Shown here: positions 6,443-63,201 of the stretch, in pieces
Layout: each line of letters begins with the position of its first letter
Position numbering within the stretch: position 1 is the first letter of the stretch
The notes under the pieces: generated by a model
What the model saw: the letters and a program-made list of their open reading frames with translations, nothing else
What the model was told of the DNA's origin: nothing
Database searches by the model: none
Translations under genes and position numbers: made by a program
IMG/VR virus record: IMGVR_UViG_3300028886_000042
DNA length: 64,000 nt
Direction: 5' to 3' (one strand)
Origin: a virus
Lineage: Duplodnaviria > Caudoviricetes

Positions 6443-6530
6443 CAACTATTTATTATTAAATACAAATAAGAATAGAATATGAAGAATAGAATAAGAATAA
6501 CAGAGAGTGACCTTCATAGAATTGTGAAAG
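6443..6530 (+). repeat. Cassette 5' repeat, copy 1 (upstream motif plus leader)
   Basis: Near-identical to 7194-7281. Confidence 0.85.
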
Positions 6531-7087
6531 AGTCTGTGAAAAGAGTATTGAGGGAATCAGCACATAGAACTATTGACAAAAAACAACGTCTAACTGAGGA
6601 TATTTATGTTGGAAATGGTGGTGGGTATTATGGTGGTTCTGCCATCTTTACAGTTAGAATGGAAGGTGATATGCCGACAAGTTATGAATTTAGTCCAAAA
6701 GGATGGGACTTTGATACAAAATCACAATTAGAGGCTGCTGCTGTATGTGCTTCTGCAAATAAGGGATTTCTTGAACAAATGAAAAACTCAGAATTGACAC
6801 AATTACCGGTTGTTCCGACTACCGAAGATGATAAGGCAAATGCACTATATTGGCTAACCGGTGGCAATGCTGAATGGAATCACGGATATTGGGCAGAAGG
6901 CGGTGTTCATTGGGGGGAAGCAGAGGAAATATTATTAAATGACACTGATATAATGGGACTATTGGATGATGCAATCTCTAATTCAAGCAATTTTTATGAA
7001 TTAGTCATAAATCTTAAAAGAGGTGAGTATATGCAGTATGCAGCAGATGTCATCCCAACTAACGACTATGATGAGGATGAGTATTAA
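6479..7087 (+). CDS. Leader-tagged hypothetical protein (candidate internal head protein)
   Basis: N-terminus MKNRIRITESDLHRIVKESVKRVLRES. Confidence 0.7.
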   Translation: MKNRIRITESDLHRIVKESVKRVLRESAHRTIDKKQRLTEDIYVGNGGGYYGGSAIFTVRMEGDMPTSYEFSPKGWDFDTKSQLEAAAVCASANKGFLEQMKNSELTQLPVVPTTEDDKANALYWLTGGNAEWNHGYWAEGGVHWGEAEEILLNDTDIMGLLDDAISNSSNFYELVINLKRGEYMQYAADVIPTNDYDEDEY

Positions 7088-7112
7088 ACCGCAATTAAAC
7101 CAACTCTAATCT

Positions 7113-7156
7113 CAGACCATTTGTGTACTAAGCCGATAGACTTTAAAAACATATAT
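7113..7156. repeat. 44-nt 3' element, copy 1
   Basis: CAGACCATTT-N14-TAGACTTTAAAAACATATAT, also at 7589-7632. Confidence 0.85.
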
Positions 7157-7190
7157 GAGCGAATCCATCCGGTTCGCTTGTTTTTTTTTT
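7157..7190 (+). terminator. Rho-independent terminator
   Basis: GAGCGAAT/GTTCGCTT stem plus T tract. Confidence 0.7.
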
Positions 7191-7193
7191 ATT

Positions 7194-7281
7194 CAACTAT
7201 TTATTATTAAATACAATAAGAATATAATAATGAAGAATAGAATAAGATTAACAGAATCAGACCTTCACAGAATTGTGAAAG
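7194..7281 (+). repeat. Cassette 5' repeat, copy 2
   Basis: Near-identical to 6443-6530. Confidence 0.85.
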
Positions 7282-7577
7282 AATCAGTAAATATGATATT
7301 ATCTGAAGCCAATAACCATTTAATATCAGTTGGAGGCATAGAAGACACTCCATTTACACGTAATAACAATAAAGGCTCTAATAGCATTAGAATAAATGGT
7401 GTGTTTAATACAACCAATTATAGCAATAACCCATCACGTGCGGCTATTGAGATGATGCAAGACAAATTACCATTTGATGAATTTATCGATTATTGCGAAC
7501 AACGCGGAATTAACCCATATGATTATATTGATACTAATGATTTTGAGGTAGAACAATGGATAGAAGATTACATATAG
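7230..7577 (+). CDS. Leader-tagged hypothetical protein
   Basis: Start corrected to ATG 7230: MKNRIRLTESDLHRIVKESVNMILSEA. Confidence 0.7.
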   Translation: MKNRIRLTESDLHRIVKESVNMILSEANNHLISVGGIEDTPFTRNNNKGSNSIRINGVFNTTNYSNNPSRAAIEMMQDKLPFDEFIDYCEQRGINPYDYIDTNDFEVEQWIEDYI

Positions 7578-7588
7578 GTTTAATTGAG

Positions 7589-7632
7589 CAGACCATTTAC
7601 GAACAAGTCCAGTAGACTTTAAAAACATATAT
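7589..7632. repeat. 44-nt 3' element, copy 2
   Basis: Same flanks and spacing as 7113-7156. Confidence 0.85.
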
Positions 7633-7636
7633 ATTT

Positions 7637-7667
7637 AATACACCCGTTTCCGAGTGTATTTTTTTTT
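7637..7667 (+). terminator. Rho-independent terminator
   Basis: AATACAC...GTGTATT stem plus T tract. Confidence 0.65.
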
Positions 7668-7721
7668 GTTGACAATGATTCATTTATTCCCTATATTTAT
7701 TATAAATAGGATAGAACTACA

Positions 7722-9764
7722 ATGCCAACAAAACCAACAATATTTCAGAGGCTTACTAATATACTTTCAAACAGTAATAATATACAGGGTGCTGTTAAAA
7801 AGGTAAATTCCTACGGTATAAACGATTCTGATATATTATTCCGTACTAATAACAAGGAAGAGTATGACAGTAAGTTAAAGGAACTCAGGCAGCAGCATTT
7901 GCTTGCTAAGCAGTGGAAGAAGGCGAACTATGACCTTACCAACAAGTCACTTGCCGGACTGAATGAAGTAAAGATGATGTACCGTGATGCAGACCTGATG
8001 GACTGTTTCCCTGAAATCGGTACTGCGCTTGATATAGTATCTGAGGAGGCATGTTTCGTGAAGGAGTTTATGGTTAACGTGACTTCCAAATCCGAACGTG
8101 TAAAATCAATTTTACAGGATTTGCTTGTAAACCGCTTGCAGATTAATATTATGCTTCCTATGGTATGCAGAAGTATGGCTAAGTACGGTAACACGTTCAT
8201 GCTTCTTGAGATAAATGAGGAAAACGGTGTTGTGAATTGGAGACAGTTACCGGTTTATGAGTTGGAGAGGTATGAAAACGGTATGGAAAATCCATATGCA
8301 AATGCTTATGTTAATCTGAATAATATAGACCTTAATCAGACGGATTCCACTAAATTTGTTTGGGTAGGTCAGACTGAATTCACGCCTTACAGAAACTGGC
8401 AGATAGCACATTTCAGACTGCTTTATGATTCGATATTCCTGCCATACGGTACGAGTTTTCTACAGAAGGCAAGAAGGCACTGGCGTATGTTGTCCATGAT
8501 GGAGGACATGATGCTTATATACAGAATGGAACGTTCAATTGAAAGACGTGTATTCAAGATAAACGTAGGTACGATTGATGATAAGGATGTTCCTGCTTAT
8601 GTTGAGGACATTGCAAACAACTTCAAACGTACACCTATTATAGACCCTCTGACAGGACAGTTGGACTTGAAGAAAAACATACTTAATGTATCTGAGGATT
8701 TCTTCATACCTGTACGTGATGATAATGCAAGCAACCCTATAGATACGTTGCAGGGAGCACAGAACATGACTGCGATGGATGACATAAAATTCATACAGAA
8801 TAAAGTATGTACAGCACTGAGAATACCCAAATCATATCTGAATTTCGAGGAAACCACCGGTGACGGTAAGAACCTTTCGTTACTTGACGTAAGATTCATG
8901 CGTACAGTAAACAGAATACAGCAGTCGTTGTTAATGGAACTGAATAAAATCTGTATCATACACCTTTATCTTTTAGGATTTGAAGATGAACTTACGAATT
9001 TCACTCTTACCATGAATAATCCTTCTTCACAGGCTGAAATGCTTGAGCTGGAAAACATGGCAAAGAAAATAACAACAGCAAAGGATGCTATTTCTGATGC
9101 CGGTAACGGAATACAGCTTATGTCATGGACGAGGGCATGTAAGCAGATTCTCGGTTGGTCTGATAAGGAAATTGAGGAAAACTTGCAGGAAATCAGACTT
9201 GAAAAGGCACTTGCGGCAGAGTTGGAGAAAACCGCACAGATTATCAAGCGTACTAATATATTCGATAAGGTTGACAATATATACGGCGAACCCGGTGCTG
9301 AATACTCGGAAGAGCCTGTAGGCGGTGAAGACGGTCAGGGCGGTATGGGCGGTGGAGCCGGCGGTATCGGTGGAGGTACTATAGGAGGCGGTGATTTCGA
9401 CTTCGGTGACGAAGGCGGTGACGAAATGGGTGCAGAAGGTGAAATGGGCATGGATGCAGCAGCCGATGAAATGACTCCTGAGCAGGGAGGAGCACCTGAA
9501 GCAGGAAACGAGCCTATACCTCCTATGGGAGAAGATTATCTCGGAAGGCTGTTCAAGAAGATGATTAACGAACAGCATGAGGTGCAGAAGGATATAGCGA
9601 GAAAGGGAAAGAAATACAGTGACAGACTGAAGGAGCGTAAGGAGAAATATGATATATCAAACCGTATAAACGAGAACGTACCGATATATCAGAAGAATTT
9701 CCTGATAAATGAGGATTTAAATTCGATGATTAAGCAGCTTGATGAAATTAACGCTAAGAAATAA
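7722..9764 (+). CDS. gp20: Portal vertex protein (T4 gp20-like)
   Basis: EDMMLIYRMERSIERRVFKINVG, EDFFIPVR, IDTLQGA and ALRIPKS motifs; Gly/acidic C-terminal tail. Confidence 0.93.
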   Translation: MPTKPTIFQRLTNILSNSNNIQGAVKKVNSYGINDSDILFRTNNKEEYDSKLKELRQQHLLAKQWKKANYDLTNKSLAGLNEVKMMYRDADLMDCFPEIGTALDIVSEEACFVKEFMVNVTSKSERVKSILQDLLVNRLQINIMLPMVCRSMAKYGNTFMLLEINEENGVVNWRQLPVYELERYENGMENPYANAYVNLNNIDLNQTDSTKFVWVGQTEFTPYRNWQIAHFRLLYDSIFLPYGTSFLQKARRHWRMLSMMEDMMLIYRMERSIERRVFKINVGTIDDKDVPAYVEDIANNFKRTPIIDPLTGQLDLKKNILNVSEDFFIPVRDDNASNPIDTLQGAQNMTAMDDIKFIQNKVCTALRIPKSYLNFEETTGDGKNLSLLDVRFMRTVNRIQQSLLMELNKICIIHLYLLGFEDELTNFTLTMNNPSSQAEMLELENMAKKITTAKDAISDAGNGIQLMSWTRACKQILGWSDKEIEENLQEIRLEKALAAELEKTAQIIKRTNIFDKVDNIYGEPGAEYSEEPVGGEDGQGGMGGGAGGIGGGTIGGGDFDFGDEGGDEMGAEGEMGMDAAADEMTPEQGGAPEAGNEPIPPMGEDYLGRLFKKMINEQHEVQKDIARKGKKYSDRLKERKEKYDISNRINENVPIYQKNFLINEDLNSMIKQLDEINAKK

Positions 9765-9793
9765 CATATTTATTATAAAATAATTTTTGTACG

Positions 9794-10984
9794 ATGAGTG
9801 AGTTTAACGATACATACCACAAGGCCGGTGTTCTTATGCAAAGTGCCTTGAAGAAATATGAGAAAGGTGATATTGAAGGGGGAAACAAGGACAGACAGAT
9901 GGCAAACGACATGTATGACCTTGCAGAAAAAGAAGTCGATTCGGAACAGGGCATGACAATGCTGTATGGGGAAAACCGTAACTTCGGTATCATATACAAA
10001 GTATTCGAGAGTAATGCACCGAAGCTTTTCAAGGAAAAGAACGGTAAGGTGAAACTCGGAAAAATACTGAATCTCATAAAGGAAAACAAGGTACTTAAAT
10101 CGGAATTCGACATTTACAAGTCTCTTGTCTATCCTGATTCAGTCTGTGATTCGGAAACTTATGTAAACGAGGCTGTTTCCGTCATACATCCGCTTAAAAA
10201 GGAAGATGTCGTAAGAAACAACGAGGAACTGATAAGGACATTCCGTAAACTCGGTTTGGATGAAATGGTTGAAATTTCAGACGATGACATGAAACTCATG
10301 GAATCAGTTGAGTTTGTCACATTAAACAGAAAGAACCTCAATAATGCCAACGAGTTTGCAAAGGCAAAGAAATGCCTGTCTGAGCATATAGATAAAAACT
10401 GCAAATACACTGAGGTAAACAGTAATTCAGTCGATGAGGTACTTAGGGAAGGTATTGACAGTGTTAATGAGAAATATGTATCAGACCTTACGGATGAAGA
10501 GAAGATGCTTGTAGAGAAACTTAACGGAATAACCTCAAAGGAAGCATATTTCGACATAGCAAAGAATGATACGATAAAGATACTGAATGAAAGGCTGAAT
10601 GAATGTGATGAGGAAAACTATACGGATTTGGAGAAGATAGTTGAAAACGTTGCCATGAAGACATATGATGAAGACAGGTTTATTTCAGACGCGGCAGAAT
10701 TCAGGGAAATAAAAGATACACTTACCGAATCTGAGAAAACAGATACCGATTCAGTTGAATCACTGTCAATAGAACTTGCAAGAAACTGTATAGGTGAAAG
10801 TACACGTAACAGAGACTGGATTATAAGTGAACTGTCATATATTACAGATGATGAGACAGATGCAAGTAAGATAGTGGAAGATATTGAAAGAATGGCTGAT
10901 AAATATAAACCGGAAAATATGGGTGGTATTATAAAAACAAACCTTAAAGCCGGTAAATATAAAGGTTGGTGGAAGAACATGTAA
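9794..10984 (+). CDS. Hypothetical head-module protein
   Basis: 396 aa between portal and protease; preceded by TATTTAT. Confidence 0.6.
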   Translation: MSEFNDTYHKAGVLMQSALKKYEKGDIEGGNKDRQMANDMYDLAEKEVDSEQGMTMLYGENRNFGIIYKVFESNAPKLFKEKNGKVKLGKILNLIKENKVLKSEFDIYKSLVYPDSVCDSETYVNEAVSVIHPLKKEDVVRNNEELIRTFRKLGLDEMVEISDDDMKLMESVEFVTLNRKNLNNANEFAKAKKCLSEHIDKNCKYTEVNSNSVDEVLREGIDSVNEKYVSDLTDEEKMLVEKLNGITSKEAYFDIAKNDTIKILNERLNECDEENYTDLEKIVENVAMKTYDEDRFISDAAEFREIKDTLTESEKTDTDSVESLSIELARNCIGESTRNRDWIISELSYITDDETDASKIVEDIERMADKYKPENMGGIIKTNLKAGKYKGWWKNM

Positions 10985-10996
10985 TTTTTTCTTATA

Positions 10997-11026
10997 AAAC
11001 ACTCCGTTATTCGGGGTGTTTTTTTT
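10997..11026. terminator. Bidirectional terminator
   Basis: AAAACACTCCG...CGGGGTGTTTT between convergent genes. Confidence 0.75.
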
Positions 11027-11067
11027 GTCTGAATGAGCCGTTAACGGGCAGTCATTGGTTTGGTGGC

Positions 11068-11934
11068 TCATTTTTCATTTGTTAATGGACTAAACAAAGT
11101 AAGAAATGTTATATCCTTTGGGTCAAACGTTTCCAATAATGCTTCTGCTGAATCAGAAATAGTCTTTCCACTTGTTACTGTATCATCAAGCACAAGTACT
11201 CGCTTTCCGTTAATGTCATTGGCTAATTCCAAATTACTTTTCACTTCATCAGAGATGTACATTGACTGAATTACGTATTGTCTATATTTTTCTTCAATAT
11301 ATTTGTATGAAAAAACCCCATCGTTTTTACGGTTCATTTTCATTATTGACCTTTCTATTTCTTTCTTACAATCCCTAAATTCTTCGTCTGTATTAGTCAT
11401 TTGGGCAATAAGGTCATCATCTATCATATAGTCAAGAACATAATTTGCATCATACTTTTTAAAGAAATCCTTTATTGCTTTCTCATGTGGAATAATTCTT
11501 TCAACTATACCAAAAATCCTATTATTAAGTTGATTATTAGATGGTGTTGTGATTATCACATCAAAATTCTCATTCAATTCTTTCGTGACAGCAACAAATC
11601 TGCGTAATAACGCCATTAAATCATAATGTTCATCTCTAAACCCCCAATCTTTATGTCCCTTTAAAGCCTTTATTAATGGGTTTGAATCATATCTGTCATT
11701 TGTCTTCTTTCTTGTGAATACAGAAATAACTTTATAGCCGTTGACATTATTGTAAATTGGATATGGATTCCAAGGGTCATTAGTATCAACATATTCTTGG
11801 TGATTAGGATTAAAGCCAACAGTATGCGGAATAGAATCAGTATCTATATCTATTCCTTCTATTACTTTCTGAACAGCCTCTTTTACAACTTCCTTCAGCT
11901 CATTTTCGGTTAGTCTTATCTGTTTCTTCCCCAT
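11068..11934 (-). CDS. Type I phosphoribosyltransferase-fold protein with N-terminal leader
   Basis: PRPP-binding loop VLVLDDTVTSGKT; N-terminus MGKKQIRLTENELKEVVKEAV. Confidence 0.75.
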   Translation of the reverse strand: MGKKQIRLTENELKEVVKEAVQKVIEGIDIDTDSIPHTVGFNPNHQEYVDTNDPWNPYPIYNNVNGYKVISVFTRKKTNDRYDSNPLIKALKGHKDWGFRDEHYDLMALLRRFVAVTKELNENFDVIITTPSNNQLNNRIFGIVERIIPHEKAIKDFFKKYDANYVLDYMIDDDLIAQMTNTDEEFRDCKKEIERSIMKMNRKNDGVFSYKYIEEKYRQYVIQSMYISDEVKSNLELANDINGKRVLVLDDTVTSGKTISDSAEALLETFDPKDITFLTLFSPLTNEK

Positions 11935-12238
11935 ATACAGTACAGTTTATCGTTCATAATTATCCAAACCACGTGCAAATATACTACTTTTTCATGTAAC
12001 AAATAAACTTCTAAAGTTATTTATTGTTAAATAACTGAATATTACAGTAAAGAAGAACATACTACAAGCAATTGAATGTCTTAAAAATGCTGTTGCTACC
12101 GATGCTCAACTCTACTAAAGAGCCATTAGCGAGCCATTAACAGAAAGTTCAACATACTGAAAATAAATCTGTTGACAATGTTAAACAGAATTATCATGAG
12201 CCTTTAACAATTAAAGGTTCATTTTTTTTTAGTATTTT

Positions 12239-12765: not shown

Positions 12766-13959
12766 ATGAAAAAGATACAGAATAAGGAACAGCTTGTAGA
12801 AATTAAGAAGGGACAGACAGGTTACGGACTGCTTATAGAGAATGACGGTCATATCACAGGAAAACCGGATATGATAAATCAGATTAAGGAGGATATTGAC
12901 AATAACCATAAATTTGTCATACCTGATGACTTTATAGTGTCGGCAGTATTTCAGAAATACGGTATAAAAAACGCAAACGGAAGAATCTATCCTGAGGATG
13001 TACTGAGAAGGGAAGTACAGAAATATTTGGAGACGAGAGTTGCCATGCATAATGCAATCGGGGCCTTAGACCATCCATCTTGTCAACTTGCAGATACACA
13101 AATATTTACAGAAAAAGGTTGGAAATATATAAGTGATGTTGAAGTTGGTGAGAATATACTTACGGTTACAGAAGATAAGAAAATCGAAATTAAACCTGTT
13201 TTACGTAAGATAGATGAACCGTATAAAGGAAAACTCATCCATTTAAAGGGTAGATTTATTGATATTAAGGTAACACCTAATCATCGTTTTCCTGTATTAG
13301 ACCGTAACCAGAAATGGAAAGGATTTTATACTGCACAGGATATATTGGACGGTAATGTACCTGACCAAAATCATTCATATTTTTTCAAAGTCGGCGAATG
13401 GAAGGGTGAAGAAGATAGTGAATTTGTTGTTAATGCATTAACAGATGCTGAAGTTACTGAAGAGGACTATGAAGGACGTGTATATTGTGTTGAGGTTGAA
13501 AACCATACTTTTTACACAATGTGCAATGACGGACATTGTTTATGGTCAGGTAATTCATCGAGCTTATCCGGTCATGATGTAACACATAATATCTTGGATT
13601 TAAGGTGGGAAAAGAATACACTTGTAGGAGAAATGAAACTTCATCTGTCACCCGGTTATAAAAAATATGGTATTTGTTCAACAAGTGGTGATTTGGTTGC
13701 TAATATGATACTTGACGGCATTCTTATAGGTGTATCTTCGAGAGGTGTAGGAAGTGTTGAACAAAAGTTCGGAACTACCTTAGTATCAGACGATTATGAG
13801 TTAATTTGTTGGGACGTTGTTATCGAAAATTCAACACCGGGTGCTTATATTAAAACTAACCCTGAAGACTTAAAGCCTTTTATAGAAGGTGATTTATCTA
13901 AAAATGGTGAACTTTTAAACGAAAAAATCAAAAAATTAGGTAAGATTTTGAATCTTTAG
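12766..13959 (+). CDS. gp21: Prohead core protease (T4 gp21-like), intein-containing
   Basis: NANGRIYP, GALDHP, IGVSSRGVGS and WDVV..STPGA motifs. Confidence 0.92.
   Translation: MKKIQNKEQLVEIKKGQTGYGLLIENDGHITGKPDMINQIKEDIDNNHKFVIPDDFIVSAVFQKYGIKNANGRIYPEDVLRREVQKYLETRVAMHNAIGALDHPSCQLADTQIFTEKGWKYISDVEVGENILTVTEDKKIEIKPVLRKIDEPYKGKLIHLKGRFIDIKVTPNHRFPVLDRNQKWKGFYTAQDILDGNVPDQNHSYFFKVGEWKGEEDSEFVVNALTDAEVTEEDYEGRVYCVEVENHTFYTMCNDGHCLWSGNSSSLSGHDVTHNILDLRWEKNTLVGEMKLHLSPGYKKYGICSTSGDLVANMILDGILIGVSSRGVGSVEQKFGTTLVSDDYELICWDVVIENSTPGAYIKTNPEDLKPFIEGDLSKNGELLNEKIKKLGKILNL
13081..13554 (+). mobile_element. 158-aa mini-intein
   Basis: Starts CQLADTQIFTEKGW; block B VTPNH; block F VYCVEVENHTF; ends WSGN followed by Ser+1; no endonuclease motifs. 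Confidence 0.9.
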
Positions 13960-14015
13960 CATAATCCTATACTATTTATTGTAAATCTGCAACATATTTG
14001 CAGATAAAAAATAGT

Positions 14016-15221
14016 ATGTTTAAAGAAGATTATATTAAACGAGCACGGGAGATACATGGTGATAACTATGATTACAGTCAATTACCCGAAGAATTTAAAG
14101 GAACTGATAAAATCACAATTATTTGCAAAGAACACGGCCCGTTTGTTCAAATTGCAAGAAACCATATAAGTGTACAGCATTCAGGTTGTCCCATTTGCGG
14201 AAGAAAACGTGCAAATAGTAAATTAACAGATACTTTCGAAGAATTTGTTAAAAAGGCAAGAAAAGTACATGGTGAAAACTTTGAATATATTGAAAGTAGT
14301 TTCAAAAAAACCGGTTCTAAATTAAAGATAAAATGTAACAAATGTGGGAAAATATTCGAACAAACAGGTTCTATGCATTTATCCGGCAATGGGTGCTCAC
14401 ATTGCAATCCACCACATAAAAAGCGAACGACAGAAGATTTCGCTGCTGAACTTGCTATAACTCATCCAAATCTGGAACTGCTAAGTGAATATGTTAATAC
14501 AAATACACCTATTACTGTTAGATGTAAAATACATGACTATACTTATCAAACAACACCCCATCGTTTAAAACAGGGGGCAAATTGTCAAAAATGTTATGAT
14601 GATAGAAGAAGTGTAACTAATAGAAAACCTATTGAAAAAATACTTGAAGAAGTAGAAAAAATTCATGGGGATAAATATATTTTACCTTATATCAATACAG
14701 AGTACATAAACTCTAAGACAAAATTAACATGTAAATGCAAACACGGACATGAATTTAAAATTACTCTAAATAAACTGATAAACAGAGAACAGGGTTGTCC
14801 TATCTGTAATGAAAGTCATCTTGAGGAGAAAATCTCACTTTTAATCCCATCATTTGAGCGAAATAAGCATTATGACTGGCTTAAAAATCCAAAAACTAAT
14901 TGTATGTTAACATTAGATTCCTATGATGAAAAACTTAATGTAGCAATAGAATGTCAGGGAGACCAACATTTCAAACCGTATGAAATATGGGGTGGGGAAG
15001 TTTCATTTAAAAAGAACATTGAGCGTGACATTATTAAAAATAGGTTATGCAAAGAACATGGTACAAAATTAATTTATGTAATCCCTAAATCATACAAAAA
15101 TAAATTAAATGAAGAGAAATATAAGGGAATATATACTGACGATAATGTATTCTTTATTGAAGATATAGAAAAAGATTGCACAGATTTCATTAATATGATA
15201 TATGATTCTCAAAAAAAGTAA
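14016..15221 (+). CDS. Free-standing homing endonuclease-like protein (Zn-binding repeats plus Vsr-like/PD-(D/E)XK domain)
   Basis: Repeated HG..YDY..I.C..HG.F......H....GCP.C units; C-terminal LD.Y...NVAIECQGDQH; ATG at 14016. Confidence 0.72.
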   Translation: MFKEDYIKRAREIHGDNYDYSQLPEEFKGTDKITIICKEHGPFVQIARNHISVQHSGCPICGRKRANSKLTDTFEEFVKKARKVHGENFEYIESSFKKTGSKLKIKCNKCGKIFEQTGSMHLSGNGCSHCNPPHKKRTTEDFAAELAITHPNLELLSEYVNTNTPITVRCKIHDYTYQTTPHRLKQGANCQKCYDDRRSVTNRKPIEKILEEVEKIHGDKYILPYINTEYINSKTKLTCKCKHGHEFKITLNKLINREQGCPICNESHLEEKISLLIPSFERNKHYDWLKNPKTNCMLTLDSYDEKLNVAIECQGDQHFKPYEIWGGEVSFKKNIERDIIKNRLCKEHGTKLIYVIPKSYKNKLNEEKYKGIYTDDNVFFIEDIEKDCTDFINMIYDSQKK

Positions 15222-15261: not shown

Positions 15262-16230
15262 ATGGCAAGAAAGGTGAAAATAACAGAGGAAGTTTATAAT
15301 GCGTATCTTAACGGTGGTAGTGTAAGAAAGTCAATAATTGACGAGGCTTTGCATTACCCTTATTTTTTGGATGACCTGAAAGCAGAGGCAGAATTCTGTA
15401 TTAATGAAGAAGTACATTCAATGATGAAAAACAATGAGGTTGAAAGAACATTCAATCCTGTTTTGAGGGCTAATCAATATTTCAAGAATATAACAGTAAC
15501 ACTTAAACTGTTATATAATGAGGATATAGACACTAATGAGAATTATCATGGCTCTGCTAATTCAGATGAAACTTTGGAAGATAATCTTCTGAAAAATGCA
15601 TTTCTTGATTTTACATTTCCGGTATCATATACAAAAGAGCTGAATACAGGAAAGATGGATATGGCAATAGGACATGAGATAGGTCATCTGTATGATGATT
15701 ACAGTGATTTACTACGTGGCGGTAAGGGTGTATTCAACAGAGAAAGTACACCGTCAAAGAAAACAATCCTTTTCAATAAAACAAGAATATCCCGTGACAA
15801 ACTCTTGAATGCAATAGGTTCAATAGCATACTTGTCCATATATACTGAAAGCAATTCATTTACAGCACAGATAAAGGATGAACTAAAGGGGCTAAAGGCA
15901 ACTCATGATAATATACAGGATAAGTTCAAGGAGACGGTATCTTATCAAAATCTAAGAAAAACAGAAGATGAGTTTAATGATATTATAGACAAGTATACTG
16001 AAATTGAATTATTTCATACAAACTCAAGAATACTTAATGATTATGGCAATACTGATATACCTAAAATGAACAAATATGATTTTAACGGGGAAAAATACAG
16101 AGTAATGCTTAAGAGGTGGGCTGACAGGGTTTTGAGGAAACTTGCAAATAGATACAGGGGTGTTGTTCAGTTATATAAAGATGAATTAACTGAAAGTTAT
16201 TATACCAATAATTGTTTCATTGTTTTCTAG
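15262..16230 (+). CDS. Putative zinc metalloprotease with leader-like N-terminus
   Basis: HEIGH motif; N-terminus RKVKITEE. Confidence 0.6.
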   Translation: MARKVKITEEVYNAYLNGGSVRKSIIDEALHYPYFLDDLKAEAEFCINEEVHSMMKNNEVERTFNPVLRANQYFKNITVTLKLLYNEDIDTNENYHGSANSDETLEDNLLKNAFLDFTFPVSYTKELNTGKMDMAIGHEIGHLYDDYSDLLRGGKGVFNRESTPSKKTILFNKTRISRDKLLNAIGSIAYLSIYTESNSFTAQIKDELKGLKATHDNIQDKFKETVSYQNLRKTEDEFNDIIDKYTEIELFHTNSRILNDYGNTDIPKMNKYDFNGEKYRVMLKRWADRVLRKLANRYRGVVQLYKDELTESYYTNNCFIVF

Positions 16231-16367: not shown

Positions 16368-17807
16368 ATGGCAAATAATATCAGAAGCGAATATATCAAG
16401 AATCTTGTTGAGGAAAGGGATAAGTTGACACAGAAGCTTGAAGATACTACGAAGAATACCCTACAGAACATCGTAGAGGAGAGTATCAACAAACAGCTGC
16501 GTAACATGATTTCAGAAGCCAACGACGATTTTGAAGAGGAAGAGGTGAAAACCGACACTGAGGAAATTACTGACGGTGACGTAGAAAATCCTGATGATAC
16601 TGATTCAGATACAGTTGATACGGACAGTGATACTGATACTGAAGACGTTGCAGGCGCGGAAGGCAGTGATGATACTGATGATGATACTGCAAGCGAGGAA
16701 ATGTGGGACGGACTTGAGGATTTCAAAGGTGAAGACGGTGAGTATGACCTGACTGGAATGGGTAAGGAAGACGTTATCAAAGTATTGAAGGTTATGAAAC
16801 CCGAAGACGGAGTGAGAGTTGTCAAGAACGGAAACGGTAGTGTTACCTTGACGGATGACGAAACTGAAAAGGAGTATATCATTGACATTGACGGTTCAAT
16901 CGAGTCTGAGGATGAATCCGGTACAGAAGATAACGACGAAGTTACATTTGAGCTTGAGACTGATGATATGACAGATGAATGCGGAATCAGAACCGGTAAT
17001 AAGGTTAATGAGGGTGAAGTAGACCTTGGATATACCACTGAATATCAGAAGGAGACTGCAATGACAACACCTGATAACCACGAACCTGCTGACAGTAAAG
17101 AAACATATTCCATGGATGCAGGTGTTCCAACCGGTACTGATAGACCTTGGGGTAAGAACAAGGGTGACGGTAAGCCTTTTACAGAAGGCAAGGTATGTCC
17201 TAATTGTGGAAAGGAAGATTGCACCTGTAACGAGGAAGAAATCAACGAAGTCCATACCTCAACCGAAAACAGTGCACAGGCAAGGGGTACTGCTATTACA
17301 AACTCCAACAGTAACAAACACCGTAAGTTTGCAAGAAATCAGCATGAGGAGGGCAAACAGGTAAGAGGTACCGGTGAAGGTTACTCAGAGGGTACTAATG
17401 AAAGCATTCAGATTATCAAGAAGAAGGCAAATTCAATCTTCAGGGAAAACAAGGAACTGAGAAGTATTGCAGAGGCAATAAAGAATAAACTTGAAGAGGC
17501 AATTGTCGTAAACAGCAGTCTTGGCAGCATTATCAAGCTTGTAACTGAAAACAGTACCACAATCGACGAGAAGAAGGATATAATCCGAAGATTTGACAAT
17601 GTTAAGACAATAAATGAGGGCAAGGCACTCTACAACACAATTGCAGAGGAACTTAAGAGAGCAAACAAGGTCAACAACACAAGTGAGAACAAACTTGACG
17701 GACAGCTGACGGAATCAAAGAAGACAAAACTTGTTGAAACCACAATGTACCAGTCAGCAGACCTGTCAGCAACACTGAGCCTGATGGAACGCCTTAACAA
17801 AATGTAA
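16368..17807 (+). CDS. Prohead scaffold/core protein (gp22-like position)
   Basis: Very acidic, coiled-coil C-terminus, many (I/L/V)xE sites, directly upstream of the MCP. Confidence 0.75.
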   Translation: MANNIRSEYIKNLVEERDKLTQKLEDTTKNTLQNIVEESINKQLRNMISEANDDFEEEEVKTDTEEITDGDVENPDDTDSDTVDTDSDTDTEDVAGAEGSDDTDDDTASEEMWDGLEDFKGEDGEYDLTGMGKEDVIKVLKVMKPEDGVRVVKNGNGSVTLTDDETEKEYIIDIDGSIESEDESGTEDNDEVTFELETDDMTDECGIRTGNKVNEGEVDLGYTTEYQKETAMTTPDNHEPADSKETYSMDAGVPTGTDRPWGKNKGDGKPFTEGKVCPNCGKEDCTCNEEEINEVHTSTENSAQARGTAITNSNSNKHRKFARNQHEEGKQVRGTGEGYSEGTNESIQIIKKKANSIFRENKELRSIAEAIKNKLEEAIVVNSSLGSIIKLVTENSTTIDEKKDIIRRFDNVKTINEGKALYNTIAEELKRANKVNNTSENKLDGQLTESKKTKLVETTMYQSADLSATLSLMERLNKM

Positions 17808-41148: not shown

Positions 41149-41664
41149 TTATTTTCTGATATTGTTTATTTTAAGTTTCAGTTCCTTTAACCACGAATAT
41201 GGGAGTGAGGAAAAATCAAAACTCTCAATCAGTTTGTTAAGTACGATTGCCTGCTGTTTCGGATGAAGAGGTTTCATCGAATCTATCAGTATGTTAGCCT
41301 TGTTCTGTACGCCTTGAGGTATTTTTACGAGGTTATCATCTGTATTTCCGTTACTTAAAGTGTCAAGTTCCTTATTGTTGTAATAATCATCGACATTATC
41401 GTTATTCGTGTCGTTTTCCTTCAACGTATGCGGTCTGAGTGCAAAACCGGCATATCTGTTATATGCCTGTGATGACAGTTTATCGGCAAAACTGTCTGTT
41501 GTTTCAGGTTCTCCGTCCTCTTCATCATCCAACTTTCCGTTTACTGATATTTCCGACTGTCCGTTATACTGCTTGAAATCGCCGTTTCCGAGGTAATCGA
41601 ACGTATCACCAGCAGCTTCTTTTATCTGTTGTTCCGTTAACCTTATAATTCGCATCTTTTTCAT
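41149..41664 (-). CDS. Leader-tagged hypothetical protein
   Basis: Start corrected to ATG 41664: MKKMRIIRLTEQQIKEA. Confidence 0.62.
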   Translation of the reverse strand: MKKMRIIRLTEQQIKEAAGDTFDYLGNGDFKQYNGQSEISVNGKLDDEEDGEPETTDSFADKLSSQAYNRYAGFALRPHTLKENDTNNDNVDDYYNNKELDTLSNGNTDDNLVKIPQGVQNKANILIDSMKPLHPKQQAIVLNKLIESFDFSSLPYSWLKELKLKINNIRK

Positions 41665-51900: not shown

Positions 51901-53029
51901 TACTGAGACAACACGCGCAACTCAGGCTGAATCCAACTTACAGTCAGCAATAAACACTGCAAATGTGAATATCGCAACGAATACTTCGGATATCGCTTCA
52001 CTTAATGCAGAGGTTGCAAGTCAGAATCTGATTGCAGACGAGACTAATTCAGTCAAACTGGTTAAGAGCAAGGACGCAAGCGGTACTGAACTCATGGCTG
52101 ATGTCAAGCTCGATACTTCCGCTACCAACATTATCAGGGTAACCGGTAACGGTCTGATAGCAGACGTTGAAATGACTTACAGCCAGTCTACGAACAAGAT
52201 TACGTTCAGTAACGGCGTAACTATTCAGGAATTTGAACTTGCCGGTGCTTCACTGCTTGAAAACGGCTACTATGATTCAGTTTCAAAGCAGATAGTACTT
52301 GTAACAAGATTAGCTGACGGAACCATAAGGGAAATCAGAATCGACGCTGCTGCACTTATCCATACACTGAAGGTTGACAACGGTACTAACAATCCTATCA
52401 AGCTCAGTAAGACAATCGACCCTGAAGGTGTTGACGTACTCAGTGCAAGACTTGACATCTCAACTGAGAGCCATAACCTTATCCTTAACAATAACGGTAC
52501 GCTCTATGCTTCAAATGAGGCTAAGAATATGACCGGTCTGTGGGAAGGCGAAGAAAAGTCATTGCAGTGGATTGTAAGTCAGATTGAAGGTGCTTCCGGT
52601 GAAATAGAGGATATCGTACATGACGTTGAGACTCTTCAGAGTGACATGACTCAGGTAAAGAGTGATGTAAGTTCATTACAGACAGAACTTACGACTGTAT
52701 CTGCAAGGGTTACTCAGAATACTATCGACATTGCAACCAACCGTGGTTCAATCGAGACTCTGACAACTCAGGTAAGTGACCTTAACGGACGTGTAACCAA
52801 CCTTACAAATGAGGTTAACGACCTTGAGGAAACCGTAAGCAGCTATGAGACCCGTGTTACAAGCCTTGAAACTGACATGACTCAGGTCAAGAGTAACGTA
52901 TCTAAACTTCTGACAGATGTTGACAGAATAGATACCCAACTTGGTGACATAAGCGGTCAGCATACAGTTGCAGAGAGACTTGAAGTTCTTGAGCGTGAGG
53001 TTTATAACGGTGACTACGGTACATATTGA
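45983..53029 (+). CDS. Giant repetitive fibre protein (2348 aa)
   Basis: Five IP(K/E)DQFL...YxAGNG modules, YTKAE and E..RATAAE repeats, C-terminal heptads. Confidence 0.75.
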   Translation: MNNEYRLQLLNHGEIFPTREEAVEYIEDNFKGVALWAEPGLAFYGTEREPKMILAFGASKTATRPRVCYIDDAELREMIAAIQEQVDIHTGQIEEAAERILNIVSAVGLTLDENRIKDQIHYEPDPSDELIGRATSVAEAIAIISTFVQEKIKDLEFDVVDSRSIDLNINKTEDKTLLTGEVRISTEGQDDELDFNNNIVGIKPDGIFAACNMEYDPLGNRLIFTTSGVKNGRFVTDANVKIIELGEHTKYHADNEGHTVEMIVDNERGTLSADVKIASDETNILQNHDGRLLVDGKAKNIKYKGTTVAAALNTINEEIDRIKDEIRILMVEDFIQGDESDTILTKAIKNPNGGYTVTADVRLSSDESIQVANGGIKANVDINVDSTNNKLILSVGNNTKEVQLPGISIVDNIYYDAVNKCIVITWKDGTQKTVIPVGDMLNTWIVDNNPQSPVVLTKTEPEVAGDPEKLSADIKLASTDNLIAKDAYGQLFVSRSAIDNKIAEEATAREAADAQIRSAVEAEENARREADEVLDNKIDTTKDAIYARIDADEERINEAYANAEEAKAQVELTNANLNAEISRATTAEGVNADAIAAETSRATAAENAIDSRLSVTESGLAAEKTTRSTADAVHDEQISNLQNALAAAEASHREDVERLSAGIRTNTESIAVINGSETVSGSMRELVKGAKDELNQTISNEVTRATAAEQRVELLLQNEELRATQAEAAAVTTANAYTDHAVADSKHMSDDYTDAAKAEAIATSKAYTDSKVAEAGEASTSYTDTKVNEEKNRAVAAETANANAIVALQEKDIQIEGELADKVSEVKIVKNSQSDLQYILKVDGQDAGEINIPKDQFLVEVLYNSVSKELTFVFETQTGRETTTISIADLIDTYLAGNGIVLNGNVFSVKVNPASEFLSVDADGIKVTGINAALATKADASNVYTKAEADGKFLTEHQDISHLATKVELEAETTRATAAEQFNTSRIVSLEGEIVHKVEHVEIVKNSQSDLQYILKVDGQDAGEINIPKDQFLESVTYNEQTKTLEFIFITTDGRPSIVRINISDLVDVYTAGNGLNLNGNVFSVAIDPSSDEYITLTPYGIKISGIKAAIDNKANAADVYTKTEADNKFLTEHQDISYLATKEQVNTEVARLDAKDAELTAEVNRKVETVEVEKNPGNELQYFIIVDGTRVGTIDIPKDQFLKEVRYDSASKTLIFTFETTEGTKIVNVPIGDLVNTYTAGNGLKLVDNQFSVKINPASEFITADEDGIKVTGISAALANKANVGDSYTKAESDAKYITEHQDLTPLTDRITANENAITVINGNEAQEGSIKKSLADAKAYADALVTAEKAERQSVDATKANVGDSYTKAESDSKYLTSASIENLATKAELAAETTRATAAEEANAAEIVNLKNKDIQIENELAEKVEDVKIVKGDTDFVYRLFVDNVEKGVINIPEDQFLKNVSYNPVTRILTFVFETSAGERVVDIDMSTLVDTYTAGNGLQLDANNQFSVKINEDSESYITVTAEGIKISGIDAALASKANVGVSYTKAESDAKYLTGTDIEGLATKAEVTALDNKVEGYNTELNTKVNANTDAITTLNGNALVEGSVDYKVKAAKDALEAEIAVKANAADVYTKTEIDNKGFLTDADIEGLATKAEVTTEVARLDAKDVELTTEVNKKVETVQVVKSTGSDLSYDIRVDGQSVGTIDIPKDQFLKSVTYDAGNKEIVFVFETSEGDKTVRVSVADLVDTYTAGNGLQLDENNKFSVKINEDSESYITVTAEGIKVSGIDAALAAKANAADVYTKAQADDKFLTNADIDNLATKAELNTVSEATTANTNAIAVINGNESQEGSIKKSLSDAKAYTDNSVSAETARATAAETANANAIAVINGNEAQEGSIKKALKDAKDYTDNSIAGVRSDYDTQIAGINDALNTKANKSEVYTIAEIDAKGYLTSTDIAGLATKEEVSTETTRATQAESNLQSAINTANVNIATNTSDIASLNAEVASQNLIADETNSVKLVKSKDASGTELMADVKLDTSATNIIRVTGNGLIADVEMTYSQSTNKITFSNGVTIQEFELAGASLLENGYYDSVSKQIVLVTRLADGTIREIRIDAAALIHTLKVDNGTNNPIKLSKTIDPEGVDVLSARLDISTESHNLILNNNGTLYASNEAKNMTGLWEGEEKSLQWIVSQIEGASGEIEDIVHDVETLQSDMTQVKSDVSSLQTELTTVSARVTQNTIDIATNRGSIETLTTQVSDLNGRVTNLTNEVNDLEETVSSYETRVTSLETDMTQVKSNVSKLLTDVDRIDTQLGDISGQHTVAERLEVLEREVYNGDYGTY

Positions 53030-58077: not shown

Positions 58078-58109
58078 CAAACTTATTACTTTTATTTCAC
58101 TTTACCAAA
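58078..58109 (-). promoter_or_regulatory. Bacteroidota-type promoter for the polymerase C-part
   Basis: Reverse complement reads TTTG-N20-TAAGTTTG, 14 nt upstream of the ATG. Confidence 0.6.
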
Positions 58110-58118
58110 TTATAATTG

Positions 58119-60002: not shown

Positions 60003-60058
60003 ATTTAATTTGTGTTATATAAATAAATATATACCATTACCAATTTATTCATCAATAG

Positions 60059-60634
60059 TTAGTCTTTTTTTATAAAAAAGGGTATCTTTTCATGTATTGT
60101 ATACTTGATATTAACGCATTTCTTAATAAACTCTATTCTTGCTATGTCAGTTTTTGTTTTCATGTTCCATCCTTTACTTAGGTTATCTATGAAATTTTTC
60201 TTGTTTTCGATATTTGCATTCAGAAGCCAAAGCCATGTGTCCTTAATATTGTCATTTTCAGTCAATGTATTAAAGGAAGAATATATATCACCTTCATAAT
60301 ACTCTAACTTTGTATCTGAATTAATTTCAGACGGTTTTATCTTTTCCTTATCAGAATTAAACAGACTGTGGTCTTCGGTTACATCTACAAACATGTTATT
60401 TTCCTTATCACTGACTCTGTATATGGGCTTTGTTGTCTTATGCCGGTAAATATACTGAGGCTCAACCCATCCGCTTCTGCAAAGTACCTTGAATTTCTTC
60501 TTTGAATAGTCATATTCACGTCCTAATGCGTCAATCTGTATGTCTTTTTCACTTATTAACTCTGAAATAGGCTTTATGTCAATTAATCCGCTGTCCTCAT
60601 ATCTGATAAATAAAGGCGTGTCAGAAGTAAATGA
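60059..60634 (-). mobile_element. Split intein N-fragment (191 aa)
   Basis: Block A SFTSDTPLFIR; block B VDVTEDHSLF; no terminal Asn block. Confidence 0.85.
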
Positions 60635-62605
60635 GTCACCTACAACAGGTGTATAGTTGTAATCTGAACCTAAACCGTTTGTAGTTCCTAATTCAGTGAA
60701 GAATTTTATCATCAGACGGAGTGCCTGCCTACCGATACATGTTGTATTTTCAGCAGCATCAATATCTGAGAACGGAAATATTTCACCACTACCGTAACTT
60801 CCGAAAAATCCGTTGCAAATAACCTTTGTACAACCTTGTATATTATCAAAGAAAACATATTCAGCAATTGCAGTTTCCTTTTCAGCTAAAAGATTATCCG
60901 TATTTTCATTTAAACTCTTTTTTTCTTCTATTTCCTTTGTTAGTTTTTCTTTTCTGATTTCAGCTTCTTTTTTCTTGGATTTATAATATTGACGCTGTTT
61001 TAAAAGATATTCAAGCAGATATAACATTATATCCATCAAATCTACCGGTGTTTTTATACCAAAGGTTAAAATACAACTGGGATAAAGTGAAGAGAAATCA
61101 CCTTTGAACTGTTTCTTTATCTTACCCGTTTTTAAAAGTCTGCTGATTCCACCACAGAATTTCCTTCGTTGTATCAGTTCCGGTATTGCCAAATCATGCT
61201 GATAACTCCAAGCAAGCATGATATATTTCCAAACGGCAGCAGTTCCCATTGTACATACCTTATCGTATGATACGGGTAGTAATTTACATACAAAATAATT
61301 CGTAACGTTATATTTGTATTCTACCTTATCACTCTCCCAAAGGTCATCAAGAAGGTATCTTTGGACGATATATCTGCCGGTAGTATATTCATATATACTG
61401 TTATCTGAATTGTCCTTTAGAAAATGCTTGTCATTTTCATAATAGTCAGTATATTTAAGTGAACCGTCCTCTAATGTTTTGGACAGTTTTTTATTGTCAA
61501 CCTTAAACCATTCTCCGTTCAGATTATTGAATGCATATGTTTCAGTCAAATCCTCCCAAACGGTATTGATTTTCTTACCCGGTACATATACACGGTTTTC
61601 CTTGTTGATTTTGGAGTATTTTGTGATGTATTTAAGGTTCGCGGACTTTATATTACTGTTAATGGCCATCGCACGTCTTACTGCAAATAGTGAATCCGTA
61701 AGATGCGTACCCCACATAACGGTAGGATAGAAATACTCCATTTCACCTCCAAGTTTCAGAACCTGTTGTTTTTTCTTCTTGAATACACCTTTTCTGAAGT
61801 ATTCCATTGAGAACTCACCCATATTGAGGCCCATAAGTCTAAGTCTTGTTTCAATGAAATTCCAGTCAAAGTTTTCGGTATTATGTCCTGTGATTACATC
61901 AGACTGTAATTCCTTTATTGTTTCGAAAAATTCACGTATTGCATTGAACTCGTTCTTCCGTTTTTCCTCACCTTCACCGTCAACCGTTATGATTTTCTCA
62001 AAACCCTTGTTGGTTCTTATACCTATCTGACTGATTGCGTCCTTCTCAGGGTCAAGTCCTTCGGTTTCCAAGTCCCATTCCATTCTGAGCAGGTCATCGT
62101 AGTCATCATACCCCTTGAAAAGCCTCCTGCCTGTCTGAATCATGTACTGTTCAACAGGAGAAATACATATGTATTCCTTTAATCCGTAATTACTGTCACG
62201 TTCTTTAGGATATATAGGTCTACCGGCTTTTTTGAAGAAATCCATGAACTTTGAATATGTCATGGGAACCTTTGCATAGAACAGCAGTTTATATCCGTTC
62301 TTCATACGTTCAGGTTCAGTACCATCATCACGTGTAGTCCTTAACCCCTTTACGCCTATATTGTATTCTGACAGTTTAATCCTTATCAGTTTTCTGTCAC
62401 CTCCGAAAAGTTTTTGGGCTGTTGTCTCCTTTGTCCACAGAAACGGATAGAAATTCTCCCTTTTAATCATTTTCCTACCCTCTTCGTTCCTGTATATGAT
62501 ACTTACCTTGTTGTCATCATATCCGCATTCTATCTTAATGATATGCTCCATAGGGTCAGTACCGTTAAGGAATGACTCGATTTCTTCCTTTGTTACCTTT
62601 GGCAT
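60059..62605 (-). CDS. polB: DNA polymerase B, N-terminal part fused to split intein N-fragment
   Basis: ExoI DLETEG, ExoII HNTENFD, motif A DFSSLYPS, motif B KVICNGFFG; motif C breaks after VVGD. Confidence 0.9.
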   Translation of the reverse strand: MPKVTKEEIESFLNGTDPMEHIIKIECGYDDNKVSIIYRNEEGRKMIKRENFYPFLWTKETTAQKLFGGDRKLIRIKLSEYNIGVKGLRTTRDDGTEPERMKNGYKLLFYAKVPMTYSKFMDFFKKAGRPIYPKERDSNYGLKEYICISPVEQYMIQTGRRLFKGYDDYDDLLRMEWDLETEGLDPEKDAISQIGIRTNKGFEKIITVDGEGEEKRKNEFNAIREFFETIKELQSDVITGHNTENFDWNFIETRLRLMGLNMGEFSMEYFRKGVFKKKKQQVLKLGGEMEYFYPTVMWGTHLTDSLFAVRRAMAINSNIKSANLKYITKYSKINKENRVYVPGKKINTVWEDLTETYAFNNLNGEWFKVDNKKLSKTLEDGSLKYTDYYENDKHFLKDNSDNSIYEYTTGRYIVQRYLLDDLWESDKVEYKYNVTNYFVCKLLPVSYDKVCTMGTAAVWKYIMLAWSYQHDLAIPELIQRRKFCGGISRLLKTGKIKKQFKGDFSSLYPSCILTFGIKTPVDLMDIMLYLLEYLLKQRQYYKSKKKEAEIRKEKLTKEIEEKKSLNENTDNLLAEKETAIAEYVFFDNIQGCTKVICNGFFGSYGSGEIFPFSDIDAAENTTCIGRQALRLMIKFFTELGTTNGLGSDYNYTPVVGDSFTSDTPLFIRYEDSGLIDIKPISELISEKDIQIDALGREYDYSKKKFKVLCRSGWVEPQYIYRHKTTKPIYRVSDKENNMFVDVTEDHSLFNSDKEKIKPSEINSDTKLEYYEGDIYSSFNTLTENDNIKDTWLWLLNANIENKKNFIDNLSKGWNMKTKTDIARIEFIKKCVNIKYTIHEKIPFFIKKD

Positions 62606-62690
62606 CTTTTTTCAGTAAAAATAAATTAATATTATATAAAATCCACTTAAAGCCGACATCTTAAAACGGGCATCATGGATATACTTTCTG

Positions 62691-62721
62691 CAAATATACT
62701 GTAAATAACGTTAAAAACAAA
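62691..62721 (-). promoter_or_regulatory. Bacteroidota-type promoter for the polymerase N-part
   Basis: Reverse complement reads TTTG-N19-TATATTTG. Confidence 0.7.
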
Positions 62722-62796
62722 AATATAACTGTTTTAACAAATGTTAAAATATTTTTGTCTGAAACCGTATATTTATTGTATATATAAGTTTTTAGA

Positions 62797-63201
62797 ATGA
62801 TGAAACAGAGGTATAAATTAACGGAAAGCGAACTTCATAACCTTATAGCAGAATCAGTAAAGGAAGTATTGGCTGAGAGTGCTGAAATGGATGAAGGTTG
62901 GCTTGGAGATAAGTGGAATCAGGCAAAAAGTGCTGCGAGAACAGCTTTCAATGCTGAAGGCGGTGTCGGTAACAGATTATCACAGGCAAAGAAAAACTGG
63001 AATACACAGGGTGACTTGAATAATCTTACTTCCCTTCGCACTCAACTTGAACAGTTGCTTGATGCCAGACAGATTAGCCCCGATACTACGGTAGGTCAGC
63101 TTGTAGGCGGCAAATACAACAACAACCGATTCGGTACTATGTCAGGTATGGTAGCAAACCGTAGAGGACAGATTCAGCGTCGCGGCGGTGTTGCTTATTA
63201 A
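62797..63201 (+). CDS. Leader-tagged hypothetical protein
   Basis: MMKQRYKLTESELHNLIAESVKEVLAES; TATTTAT at 62770. Confidence 0.7.
   Translation: MMKQRYKLTESELHNLIAESVKEVLAESAEMDEGWLGDKWNQAKSAARTAFNAEGGVGNRLSQAKKNWNTQGDLNNLTSLRTQLEQLLDARQISPDTTVGQLVGGKYNNNRFGTMSGMVANRRGQIQRRGGVAY

Follow-up and report, generated by a model that had tools for sequence, protein, structure and literature searches.

Why should several proteins of one phage, unrelated in the rest of their sequence, begin with the same short peptide? The question is raised by a 64,000-nt stretch of DNA (hereafter the window) from the IMG/VR virus record IMGVR_UViG_3300028886_000042 (Duplodnaviria; Caudoviricetes). The window lies on a 208,875-bp contig, and its source is an uncultured, distantly T4-like phage, which we assign to the T4-like jumbo phages of rumen Prevotella. 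A preliminary description of the window had pointed to an N-terminal leader on different cargo proteins and had proposed that it loads them into the prohead. We found that the leader does exist, that it is far from random and reaches well beyond what a single window suggests, and that it forms a very large undescribed family. We give a probability of roughly 0.6 to the reading that it is a T4-style, protease-removable address tag for the capsid, whose helix would dock in the prohead core and would be excised by a gp21-family protease.

The profile of the leader was built from 111 leaders outside the window only and was scanned against the six-frame translation of the window. The consensus is approximately M-K-K-x-I-R-L-T-E-S-D-L-H-R-I-V-K-E-S-V-x-R-I-L-x-E (26 residues). 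Its basic, amphipathic helix (S-D-L-H-R-I-V-K-E-S-V-x-R-I-L) has L-T-E on its N-terminal flank and L/I-x-E on its C-terminal flank. A common leader had been described at 6479, 7230, 62797 and 11934 (minus strand), and this independent profile recovered it at all four places with 29.7-58 bits. In tagged gene 1 (6479-7087, plus strand, 202 amino acids (aa); 55 bits, E 3e-16), the leader occupies residues 1-26 (nt 6479-6556). A flexible spacer separates it from a second L-T-E (residues 38-40, nt 6590-6598), behind which lies a compact alpha/beta core. The true start of tagged gene 2 (7230-7577, plus strand, 115 aa; 58 bits, E 3e-17) is the ATG at 7230, not 7155, and its leader (nt 7230-7307) ends in I-L-S-E. 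The two genes are tandem cassettes, of which the 5' 103 nt, comprising promoter and leader, are 89% identical while the cargo is unrelated. Tagged gene 3 (62797-63201, plus strand, 134 aa; 37.7 bits, E 8e-11, match at 62800) has a leader at nt 62797-62877 that ends in L-A-E. The fourth copy, on a 288-aa phosphoribosyltransferase-domain protein (11068-11934, minus strand; 29.7 bits, E 3e-8, at 11928; PF00156 E 1e-7), is degenerate (nt 11934-11857) and ends in V-I-E. A weaker copy had been listed at 41664 (minus strand), at the start of a 171-aa acidic protein (41149-41664). Its first half (MKKMRIIRLTEQQIKE) stood with 11.6 bits (E 0.012, at 41655); the match is confined to the first 11 positions (profile positions 2-12) and the rest of the leader is unmatched. 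All accepted copies are at the N-terminus of their open reading frame (ORF). The cargo parts of the window's tagged genes are unrelated to one another, as had been stated, with no BLASTP pair at E < 0.2.

Thousands of proteins from a single clade of T4-like jumbo phages carry the leader; they are unrelated to one another, and most are small and acidic. When 1.84 billion cluster representatives were searched with the profile, 8,814 clusters (50% identity) carried it at E <= 0.001 and 1,843 at 1e-10. A word-based search on the first 40 residues returned 45 metagenome proteins with a near-identical leader and unrelated continuations, and no Pfam domain was found in these 45. The IMG/VR scan gave more than 238 leader loci, and five complete genomes of T4-like jumbo phages (335-413 kb) had 10-31 leader matches apiece. 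No Pfam family lies on the leader region, and no family of PHROGs v4 matched more than two of 112 leaders. Nothing was found in a full-text search of the literature for the leader motif, and a paper on T4-like gut jumbo phages leaves an N-terminal leader unmentioned.

The conservation of the leader is confined to a sharply delimited segment. Across 116 unique tagged ORFs, each column of the leader carries 2-4 bits of information as far as the final Glu; directly past this residue, the value drops from 3.69 to 0.66 bits. The final position is E in 106 of the 116 and the position two residues earlier is L or I in 112, which agrees with the earlier reading of the leader as ending in a gp21-type L/I-x-E. 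In L-T-E, the T and the E were imposed by the search patterns, which partly accounts for the invariance of these two columns but not for that of the others. All six codons are in use at the conserved Leu columns, and conserved Ser is encoded by both TCN and AGY. Because the conserved residues vary freely in synonymous codons, the constraint is on the peptide and not on the DNA. In phage DNA (translation table 11), the tag is found at the N-terminus, internally and at the extreme C-terminus. One phage protein of 667 aa has a leader at its N-terminus and a second three residues before its C-terminus, and another of 649 aa has two internal copies. Many tagged proteins have 2-4 copies; two to three were counted by motif pattern in 33 of 146 proteins checked (best cluster representatives), and half-leaders are also found on their own.

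The phage encodes a gp21-family protease together with T4-type head genes (PF03420 and PF07068 in the window). T4 gp21 cuts after L/I-X-E, degrades the core proteins to fragments and removes propeptides (PMC9026906, PMC5694885). Peptidase_S77 was present in all five of the complete 335-413 kb leader-bearing genomes in IMG/VR and in three of five further large leader-bearing contigs. The other two are not counter-examples, because one, 75% complete, lacks a capsid gene as well, and in the other only a fragment of a capsid gene is present. Among ten contigs of 90-136 kb, four had the protease, which is the chance expectation because these are fragments judged to be 24-48% complete. No complete leader-bearing phage lacking S77 was found.

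The head proteins of the window carry the same motif in places where it would be expected from T4. The major capsid protein, of the T4 gp23 family (17863-19767, plus strand, 634 aa; PF07068 E 8e-70), when aligned to mature T4 gp23, has its predicted mature start at about residue 45, and I-M-E is found at residues 42-44 (nt 17986-17994), with I-K-E at the same place in two relatives. Its L/I-x-E sites are at residues 27, 44, 51 and 60, and there is only one in the other 570 residues. L/I-x-E is enriched at the N-terminus of the capsid protein, where the observed/expected ratio was 2.64, as well as in the scaffold (1.74) and in the family of proteins that follow the portal (2.47), but not in the mature capsid protein (0.74). 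This distribution over the head proteins is the T4 pattern, and the specificity of the protease has probably been kept relative to T4 gp21.

A further line of evidence comes from the cargo. Of the 114 cargo parts, which fell into 89 BLAST clusters and have a median length of 106 residues, 71% are net acidic; Leu, Ile and Val are scarce in the cargo. We compared the observed number of motifs with that expected from shuffles of each sequence, and took as the control the neighbouring untagged proteins of these loci, none longer than 300 aa. For L/I-x-E, the ratio was 0.85 (bootstrap 0.74-0.96) in 303 cargo segments and 1.37 (1.28-1.47) in the untagged neighbours; with the cargo of the set of 116 it was 0.96 against the same 1.37. 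The corresponding values for cargo and neighbours were 1.28 and 1.14 for L/I-x-D, 1.20 and 1.22 for L/I-x-K, 1.33 and 1.07 for L/I-x-Q, and 1.22 and 1.20 for the reversed motif E-x-L/I. The cargo is specifically depleted in L/I-x-E and not in L/I-x-D. A simple artefact of composition or segregation is excluded, because the reversed-motif and Asp controls are not depleted. In T4, Asp in the cut position prevents processing (PMC9026906, PMC5694885), and the controls fit this finding. The depletion of L/I-x-E gives indirect support for exposure of the cargo to a gp21-type protease, and none of the rival explanations considered below predicts it.

That the tag is portable, as the preliminary description had proposed, is supported both by its presence on unrelated cargo and by one cargo family that has tagged and untagged members. 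This family, to which tagged gene 1 belongs, has 18 members, of which five have a full leader, eight a degenerate leader and five no leader. L-(T/V/A)-E stands immediately before the conserved core in all 13 leader-bearing members, and the five leaderless homologues begin two or three residues ahead of the core. Past the core, four members run on with a half-leader and a further module. In the AlphaFold model of the product of tagged gene 1 (mean predicted local distance difference test score (pLDDT) 82), a detached helix covers residues 9-32, residues 30-41 form a low-confidence linker and the core starts from residue 42. No solved fold matched this core, and one uncharacterised marine phage protein was found at E 1e-3. 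An informative Pfam domain was present in only one of the 116 tagged proteins, the window's phosphoribosyltransferase, and two others matched zinc-ribbon profiles only (E ~2e-4). Since the other 115 have no informative domain, to call the cargo effectors is a guess.

The position of the tagged genes is also suggestive. In the window and in five relatives they are interspersed in the module of terL, portal, protease, scaffold and capsid genes, and in two genomes they directly adjoin the protease gene on its flanks. The motif TATTTAT occurs ~30-45 nt upstream of the genes at 6479, 7230, 62797 and 41664 (minus strand), with copies at 6447-6453, 7198-7204 and 62770-62776 on the plus strand and 41702-41696 on the minus strand. 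The earlier statement that most of the listed genes carry it therefore holds for four of the five accepted genes, the exception being 11934 (minus strand), which has a host-type TAnnTTTG at 11983 in its place. TATTTAT is likewise found ~25-45 nt upstream of terL, the portal, protease and scaffold genes and others. There were 28 occurrences of ATATTTAT against 9.5 expected, a number reached in none of 100 shuffles. Across the related loci, TATTTAT lay within 60 nt upstream of 60 of 116 tagged genes compared to 120 of 399 neighbours (Fisher p 2e-5), and the host-type promoter element preceded eight of the 116 and 65 of the 399 (p 0.01). The promoter-like elements of the window, seen between genes at, for example, 11983, 12270 and 37900, fall into two classes. 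One is TATTTAT, and the other, GTATATTTGCA of the Bacteroidota -7 type, stands in front of the phosphoribosyltransferase gene, endonuclease and other genes.

If the leader is an address tag of this kind, its helix would bind a conserved partner in the scaffolding core during head assembly, and the tagged protein would therefore be enclosed in the prohead. The S77 protease, for which we propose the gene at 12766-13959, would cut after the Glu residues that flank the tag. Such cuts would release the cargo from a tag at the N-terminus, at the C-terminus or, as in polyproteins, inside the protein. Small cargo would stay in the head with the DNA and, to judge from T4, would probably enter the host at infection.

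T4 itself offers the closest parallel. Its internal proteins are diverse and have only the capsid-targeting sequence (CTS) in common (PMC3012670). In IPIII this sequence is the first 10 residues (PMC9026906, PMC5694885, PMC3012670). The CTS of IPI, IPII and IPIII and the propeptides of Alt resemble the leader in that they are short N-terminal peptides on unrelated, fast-evolving small proteins and end in L/I-x-E, and both phages have a gp21-family protease with gp23/gp20-type head genes. Alt also has tags at both protein ends, with cut sites at ITE-6 and LTE-619 (PMC9026906, PMC5694885), and in both systems Asp is tolerated where Glu is avoided. At 10 residues, the T4 CTS gives too little sequence to compare, and no similarity to it was established. 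The leader has 26 residues, is conserved far more strongly and is a defined helix between two sites. It has 10-31 matches per genome, whereas T4 has about four such genes, and polyproteins are frequent. The cargo is mostly acidic here and basic in T4, and the leader is linked to insertion sequences (IS) and occurs in host genomes. The tag system described here is known from sequence alone.

Other systems show parts of this arrangement. The jumbo phages phiKZ, 201phi2-1 and SPN3US load dozens of head proteins and trim propeptides after Glu, and the paralogues gp53 and gp54 of SPN3US, which have identical N-termini, recall the leader. However, their protease belongs to family S80 with the motif S/A-x-E, their propeptides are long without a universal tag, and that knowledge is based on mass spectrometry. 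Phage P1 puts its Dar antirestriction proteins into the head via N-terminal targeting regions and delivers them with the DNA, but the loading is hierarchical, the proteins are few and they are not known to have a common cleavable tag. Encapsulin cargo-loading peptides are short portable peptides that send diverse cargo into an HK97-fold shell, but they are usually C-terminal, are not known to be removed by a protease and are not viral. The leader system is most likely an enlarged variant of the T4 label that is loaded into the capsid and then clipped off.

Several findings weigh against this conclusion. The 10-31 matches per genome and the 8,814 clusters far exceed the documented repertoires of capsid cargo. 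No leader was matched in GenBank phages by tblastn over 50,697 records, and there is no cultured phage with the tag. The leader and the N-terminus of the scaffold showed no significant similarity (profile 8.2 bits, E 0.13; hhalign E 0.015, probability 3%), and with these values we do not claim that the leader is a copy of the scaffold's N-terminal end. The use of TATTTAT as a late-gene promoter is an assumption, made only because it precedes head genes. A different structural class of the cargo could account for part of the L/I-x-E depletion, although the Asp, Lys and reversed-motif controls argue otherwise. In addition, leaders are found in bacteria. A scan with one genome per prokaryote species gave 28 leader loci in rumen Prevotella, Segatella and relatives, including the isolates Prevotella sp. 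MA2016, Prevotella sp. tf2-5 and Segatella bryantii DSM 11371. The five bacterial genomes that were searched (three isolates and two metagenome-assembled genomes) carry one or two leader copies each, and the S77 protease is absent from the same five. The IS1595 elements described below explain how tagged genes arrived in host chromosomes, not any role there.

The phosphoribosyltransferase also counts on this side, as a doubtful member of the tagged set. In all 84 of its homologues, found on contigs up to 550 kb, an N-terminal helix of half-leader type (IIKESIxxVLE) is joined directly to the conserved GIDID. The cargo region of the window's protein has a counterpart in the chromosome of Pseudoprevotella muciniphila, with 86% identity at the protein level. 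The protein is a doubtful member because of this family-wide helix, the host-type promoter and the bacterial chromosomal copy. The 86% identity, together with that promoter, suggests that the gene was recently exchanged with a bacterium and hints at the host range.

The main rival explanation, although an unlikely one, is that the leader is a docking helix for a partner outside the prohead, such as a host hub protein, a chaperone, an export route or a phage enzyme of the kind that acts on ribosomally synthesised and post-translationally modified peptides (RiPPs), and that the cargo acts in the cytoplasm. For the helix to be nearly identical over thousands of proteins, they must have one partner in common, whichever it is, and host chromosomes have copies without any phage protease. 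The leaderless homologues indicate that cargo can work untagged. A conserved leader before hypervariable cores, in many copies per genome, is moreover the pattern of the prochlorosin-type precursors, many genes of which in one genome have one leader and an unrelated sequence behind it, multi-core precursors included. Prochlorosins differ, however, in their short peptide cores, their dedicated modifying enzyme and their cut at GG/GA. The cargo of the leader, of 40-600 aa, includes at least one protein that folds in the model, and no modification enzyme is evident; cargo of ~100-600 aa exceeds typical RiPP cores, and Pfam and PHROG showed no known modification enzyme among the scanned ORFs of the window. 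Nor would a partner outside the prohead predict the L/I-x-E bracket, the avoidance of the motif in the cargo, the restriction to T4-like phages that encode S77 or the siting among head genes.

It is rather improbable that the leader is a generic N-terminal helix for structure or oligomerisation, of the coiled-coil type, shared by descent and with no role in targeting or cleavage. The amphipathic, heptad-like pattern is consistent with such a helix, as are the half-leaders that occur singly and the phosphoribosyltransferases, in which a family-wide helix is fused directly to the core, even on 550-kb contigs and in a bacterium. However, self-association would permit drift between families, and the leader is nearly invariant over 89 unrelated cargo clusters. 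Some homologues lack the helix and begin exactly at the core, and in the model of tagged gene 1 the helix has no contact-dependent packing on the core, with a floppy linker between them. The bracket of L/I-x-E and the depletion in the cargo would also be left unexplained.

The bacterial copies lead to mobile elements. A full or decayed IS1595-family transposase lies tail to tail with the tagged gene in at least 17 of the 28 bacterial loci. In several other bacterial loci, the contig ends exactly where the transposase would follow. Of 79 viral loci, 13 have the same arrangement, as has the complete phage genome G001, and full IS1595 copies are present in the phage genomes G001 and G002. The transposase of locus L086 has the domains PF12762 (DDE_Tnp_IS1595; E 9e-43) and PF12760 (zinc ribbon; E 6e-9). 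Loci in which a tagged gene is followed by an IS1595-family transposase or its relic include L086, L090, L087, L092, L097, L066, L027 and L002. The window has two putative relics on the minus strand, one of the last 21 codons of the transposase (7090-7152; tblastn 52% over 21 aa, E 0.36 alone), tail to tail with tagged gene 1, and one of the same transposase end with 14 codons (7587-7628; 64% over 14 aa, E 2.3 alone), after tagged gene 2. Each is weak singly, but their position and orientation match those of the full transposase copies elsewhere. A short conserved element was observed ~0.9-1.3 kb upstream, and this may be the other end of a ~2.8-kb transposon.

In many of the IS-linked copies, the leader is internal and lies behind a domain of 130-235 aa with the motif R-x-S-N-H, with a variable tail after it. 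Examples of these fusions are L086:4392-5420, L097:4506-5357 and L066:2308-3423, and the proteins P0021, P0025, P0038, P0041 and P0128. The model of the upstream domain was poor (pLDDT 54) and gave weak structural matches, the highest being McrC (Z 6.1), with several restriction-endonuclease-like folds below; an Atlas search for this domain found nothing. In two Prevotella strains, the IS (93% at the nucleotide level) and the 96-bp leader (90%) are alike and the cargo between them is different. IS1595 and a constant leader may allow the exchange of cargo cassettes. It would go further to regard the tag system as a pool of cassettes that are mobilised by IS1595 and cross between jumbo phages and their Prevotella hosts. 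The host copies would then be no dead passengers but would exploit the address label of the phage, and they could be loaded into phage heads or cut there, either as a counter-measure, through sabotage or as a tripwire for the protease, or as a means of transport for the element. We regard this extension as quite doubtful.

It is very improbable that the conserved 5' end is only a DNA recombination handle of mobile cassettes, with the leader on one side, an IS1595 end on the other and a functionless peptide. The tandem cassettes do have 103 nt at 89% identity and a 3' element in common, IS1595 transposases or relics adjoin the tagged genes in the bacterial and viral loci counted above and in the window, and the two Prevotella strains keep the IS and the leader around different cargo. 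Nevertheless, the codons vary freely at conserved residues and the amino acids do not, which indicates selection on the peptide, and most tagged genes have no adjacent IS; a handle may assist the shuffling of cargo but cannot be the whole explanation. Finally, a leader that is the first half of a ribbon-helix-helix DNA-binding or antitoxin-like domain is hardly credible: its strand-then-helix order (IRLT, ESDLHRIV...) resembles the N-termini of CopG and RelB, and one protein had weak matches to PF25734 (E 0.058) and phrog_847 (E 0.0016), but conservation ends at residue 26, short of a strand-helix-helix domain of ~45 residues, so that the second helix is missing, any PHROG family is matched by only one or two of the 112 leaders, and several copies can lie within one protein.

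The surroundings of the tagged genes in the window are those of a T4-type head module, with the syntenic order terL, portal, a 300-760 aa protein, a 142-150 aa protein, protease, scaffold and capsid. The large terminase gene (terL) is at 3189-5066 and the portal gene at 7722-9764. After the latter, a candidate prohead-core protein (9794-10984, plus strand, 396 aa) has 14 L/I-x-E sites and is syntenic in relatives. The prohead protease of the T4 gp21 family (12766-13959, plus strand; Peptidase_S77 PF03420 E 1e-15; phrog_207) is split by an intein-like insert at residues 118-250 (Intein_splicing E 2e-6, under the Pfam cut-off), and the protease reading frames of relatives span 231 to 609 aa. The scaffold-like acidic protein (16368-17807, plus strand, 479 aa) lies between the protease and capsid genes, with synteny in five relatives, and its helical N-terminal part terminates in I-S-E, with an acidic run next in the alignment. 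The match of the capsid protein to gp23 is in two pieces with ~270 unmatched residues between them (~110-380), which could be an insertion domain or an intein. The closest cultured capsid genes, ~40% identical, are those of a Microcystis phage, Flavobacterium phages and Rhodothermus phage RM378.

Two further copies in the preliminary description were not recovered. KVKITEE at 15262 had no profile match, and the protein at 15262-16230 (plus strand) was rejected as a tagged protein. The protein at 40043-41134 (minus strand) was also rejected, as its internal VIRITES reached only 5.7 bits (E 0.77, at 40648 minus). The 322-aa protein at 15262-16230, between the protease and scaffold genes, has a HEIGH zincin motif and a weak match to Peptidase_M13 (E 0.02). 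Its start, M-A-R-K-V-K-I-T-E, could be a short T4-like tag that is indistinguishable from chance. Three HNH/homing-endonuclease genes are in or beside the head module (13998-15221, 20021-21694 and 21691-23211). Between terL and the tagged genes, a 388-aa protein (5215-6381) has a lipoprotein-type signal, with a hydrophobic stretch ending in L-V-S-C, and no family match was found for it. The 2,348-aa ORF at 45983-53029 has a coiled-coil C-terminus as its sole family match.

If the leader is indeed an address for the capsid, it would mark, by sequence alone, thousands of capsid-carried proteins in a major group of jumbo phages from the rumen and gut. These proteins would make up a large unexplored catalogue of candidate factors for takeover in the first minute of infection and against host defence. 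The leader would also provide a 26-residue cut-out label, a candidate for packing foreign proteins into large phage heads, and the avoidance of the cleavage motif would become a general detector of protease-exposed capsid cargo in uncultured phages. The link to IS1595 and the copies in host chromosomes raise the question of how such cargo is exchanged between the phages and their hosts.

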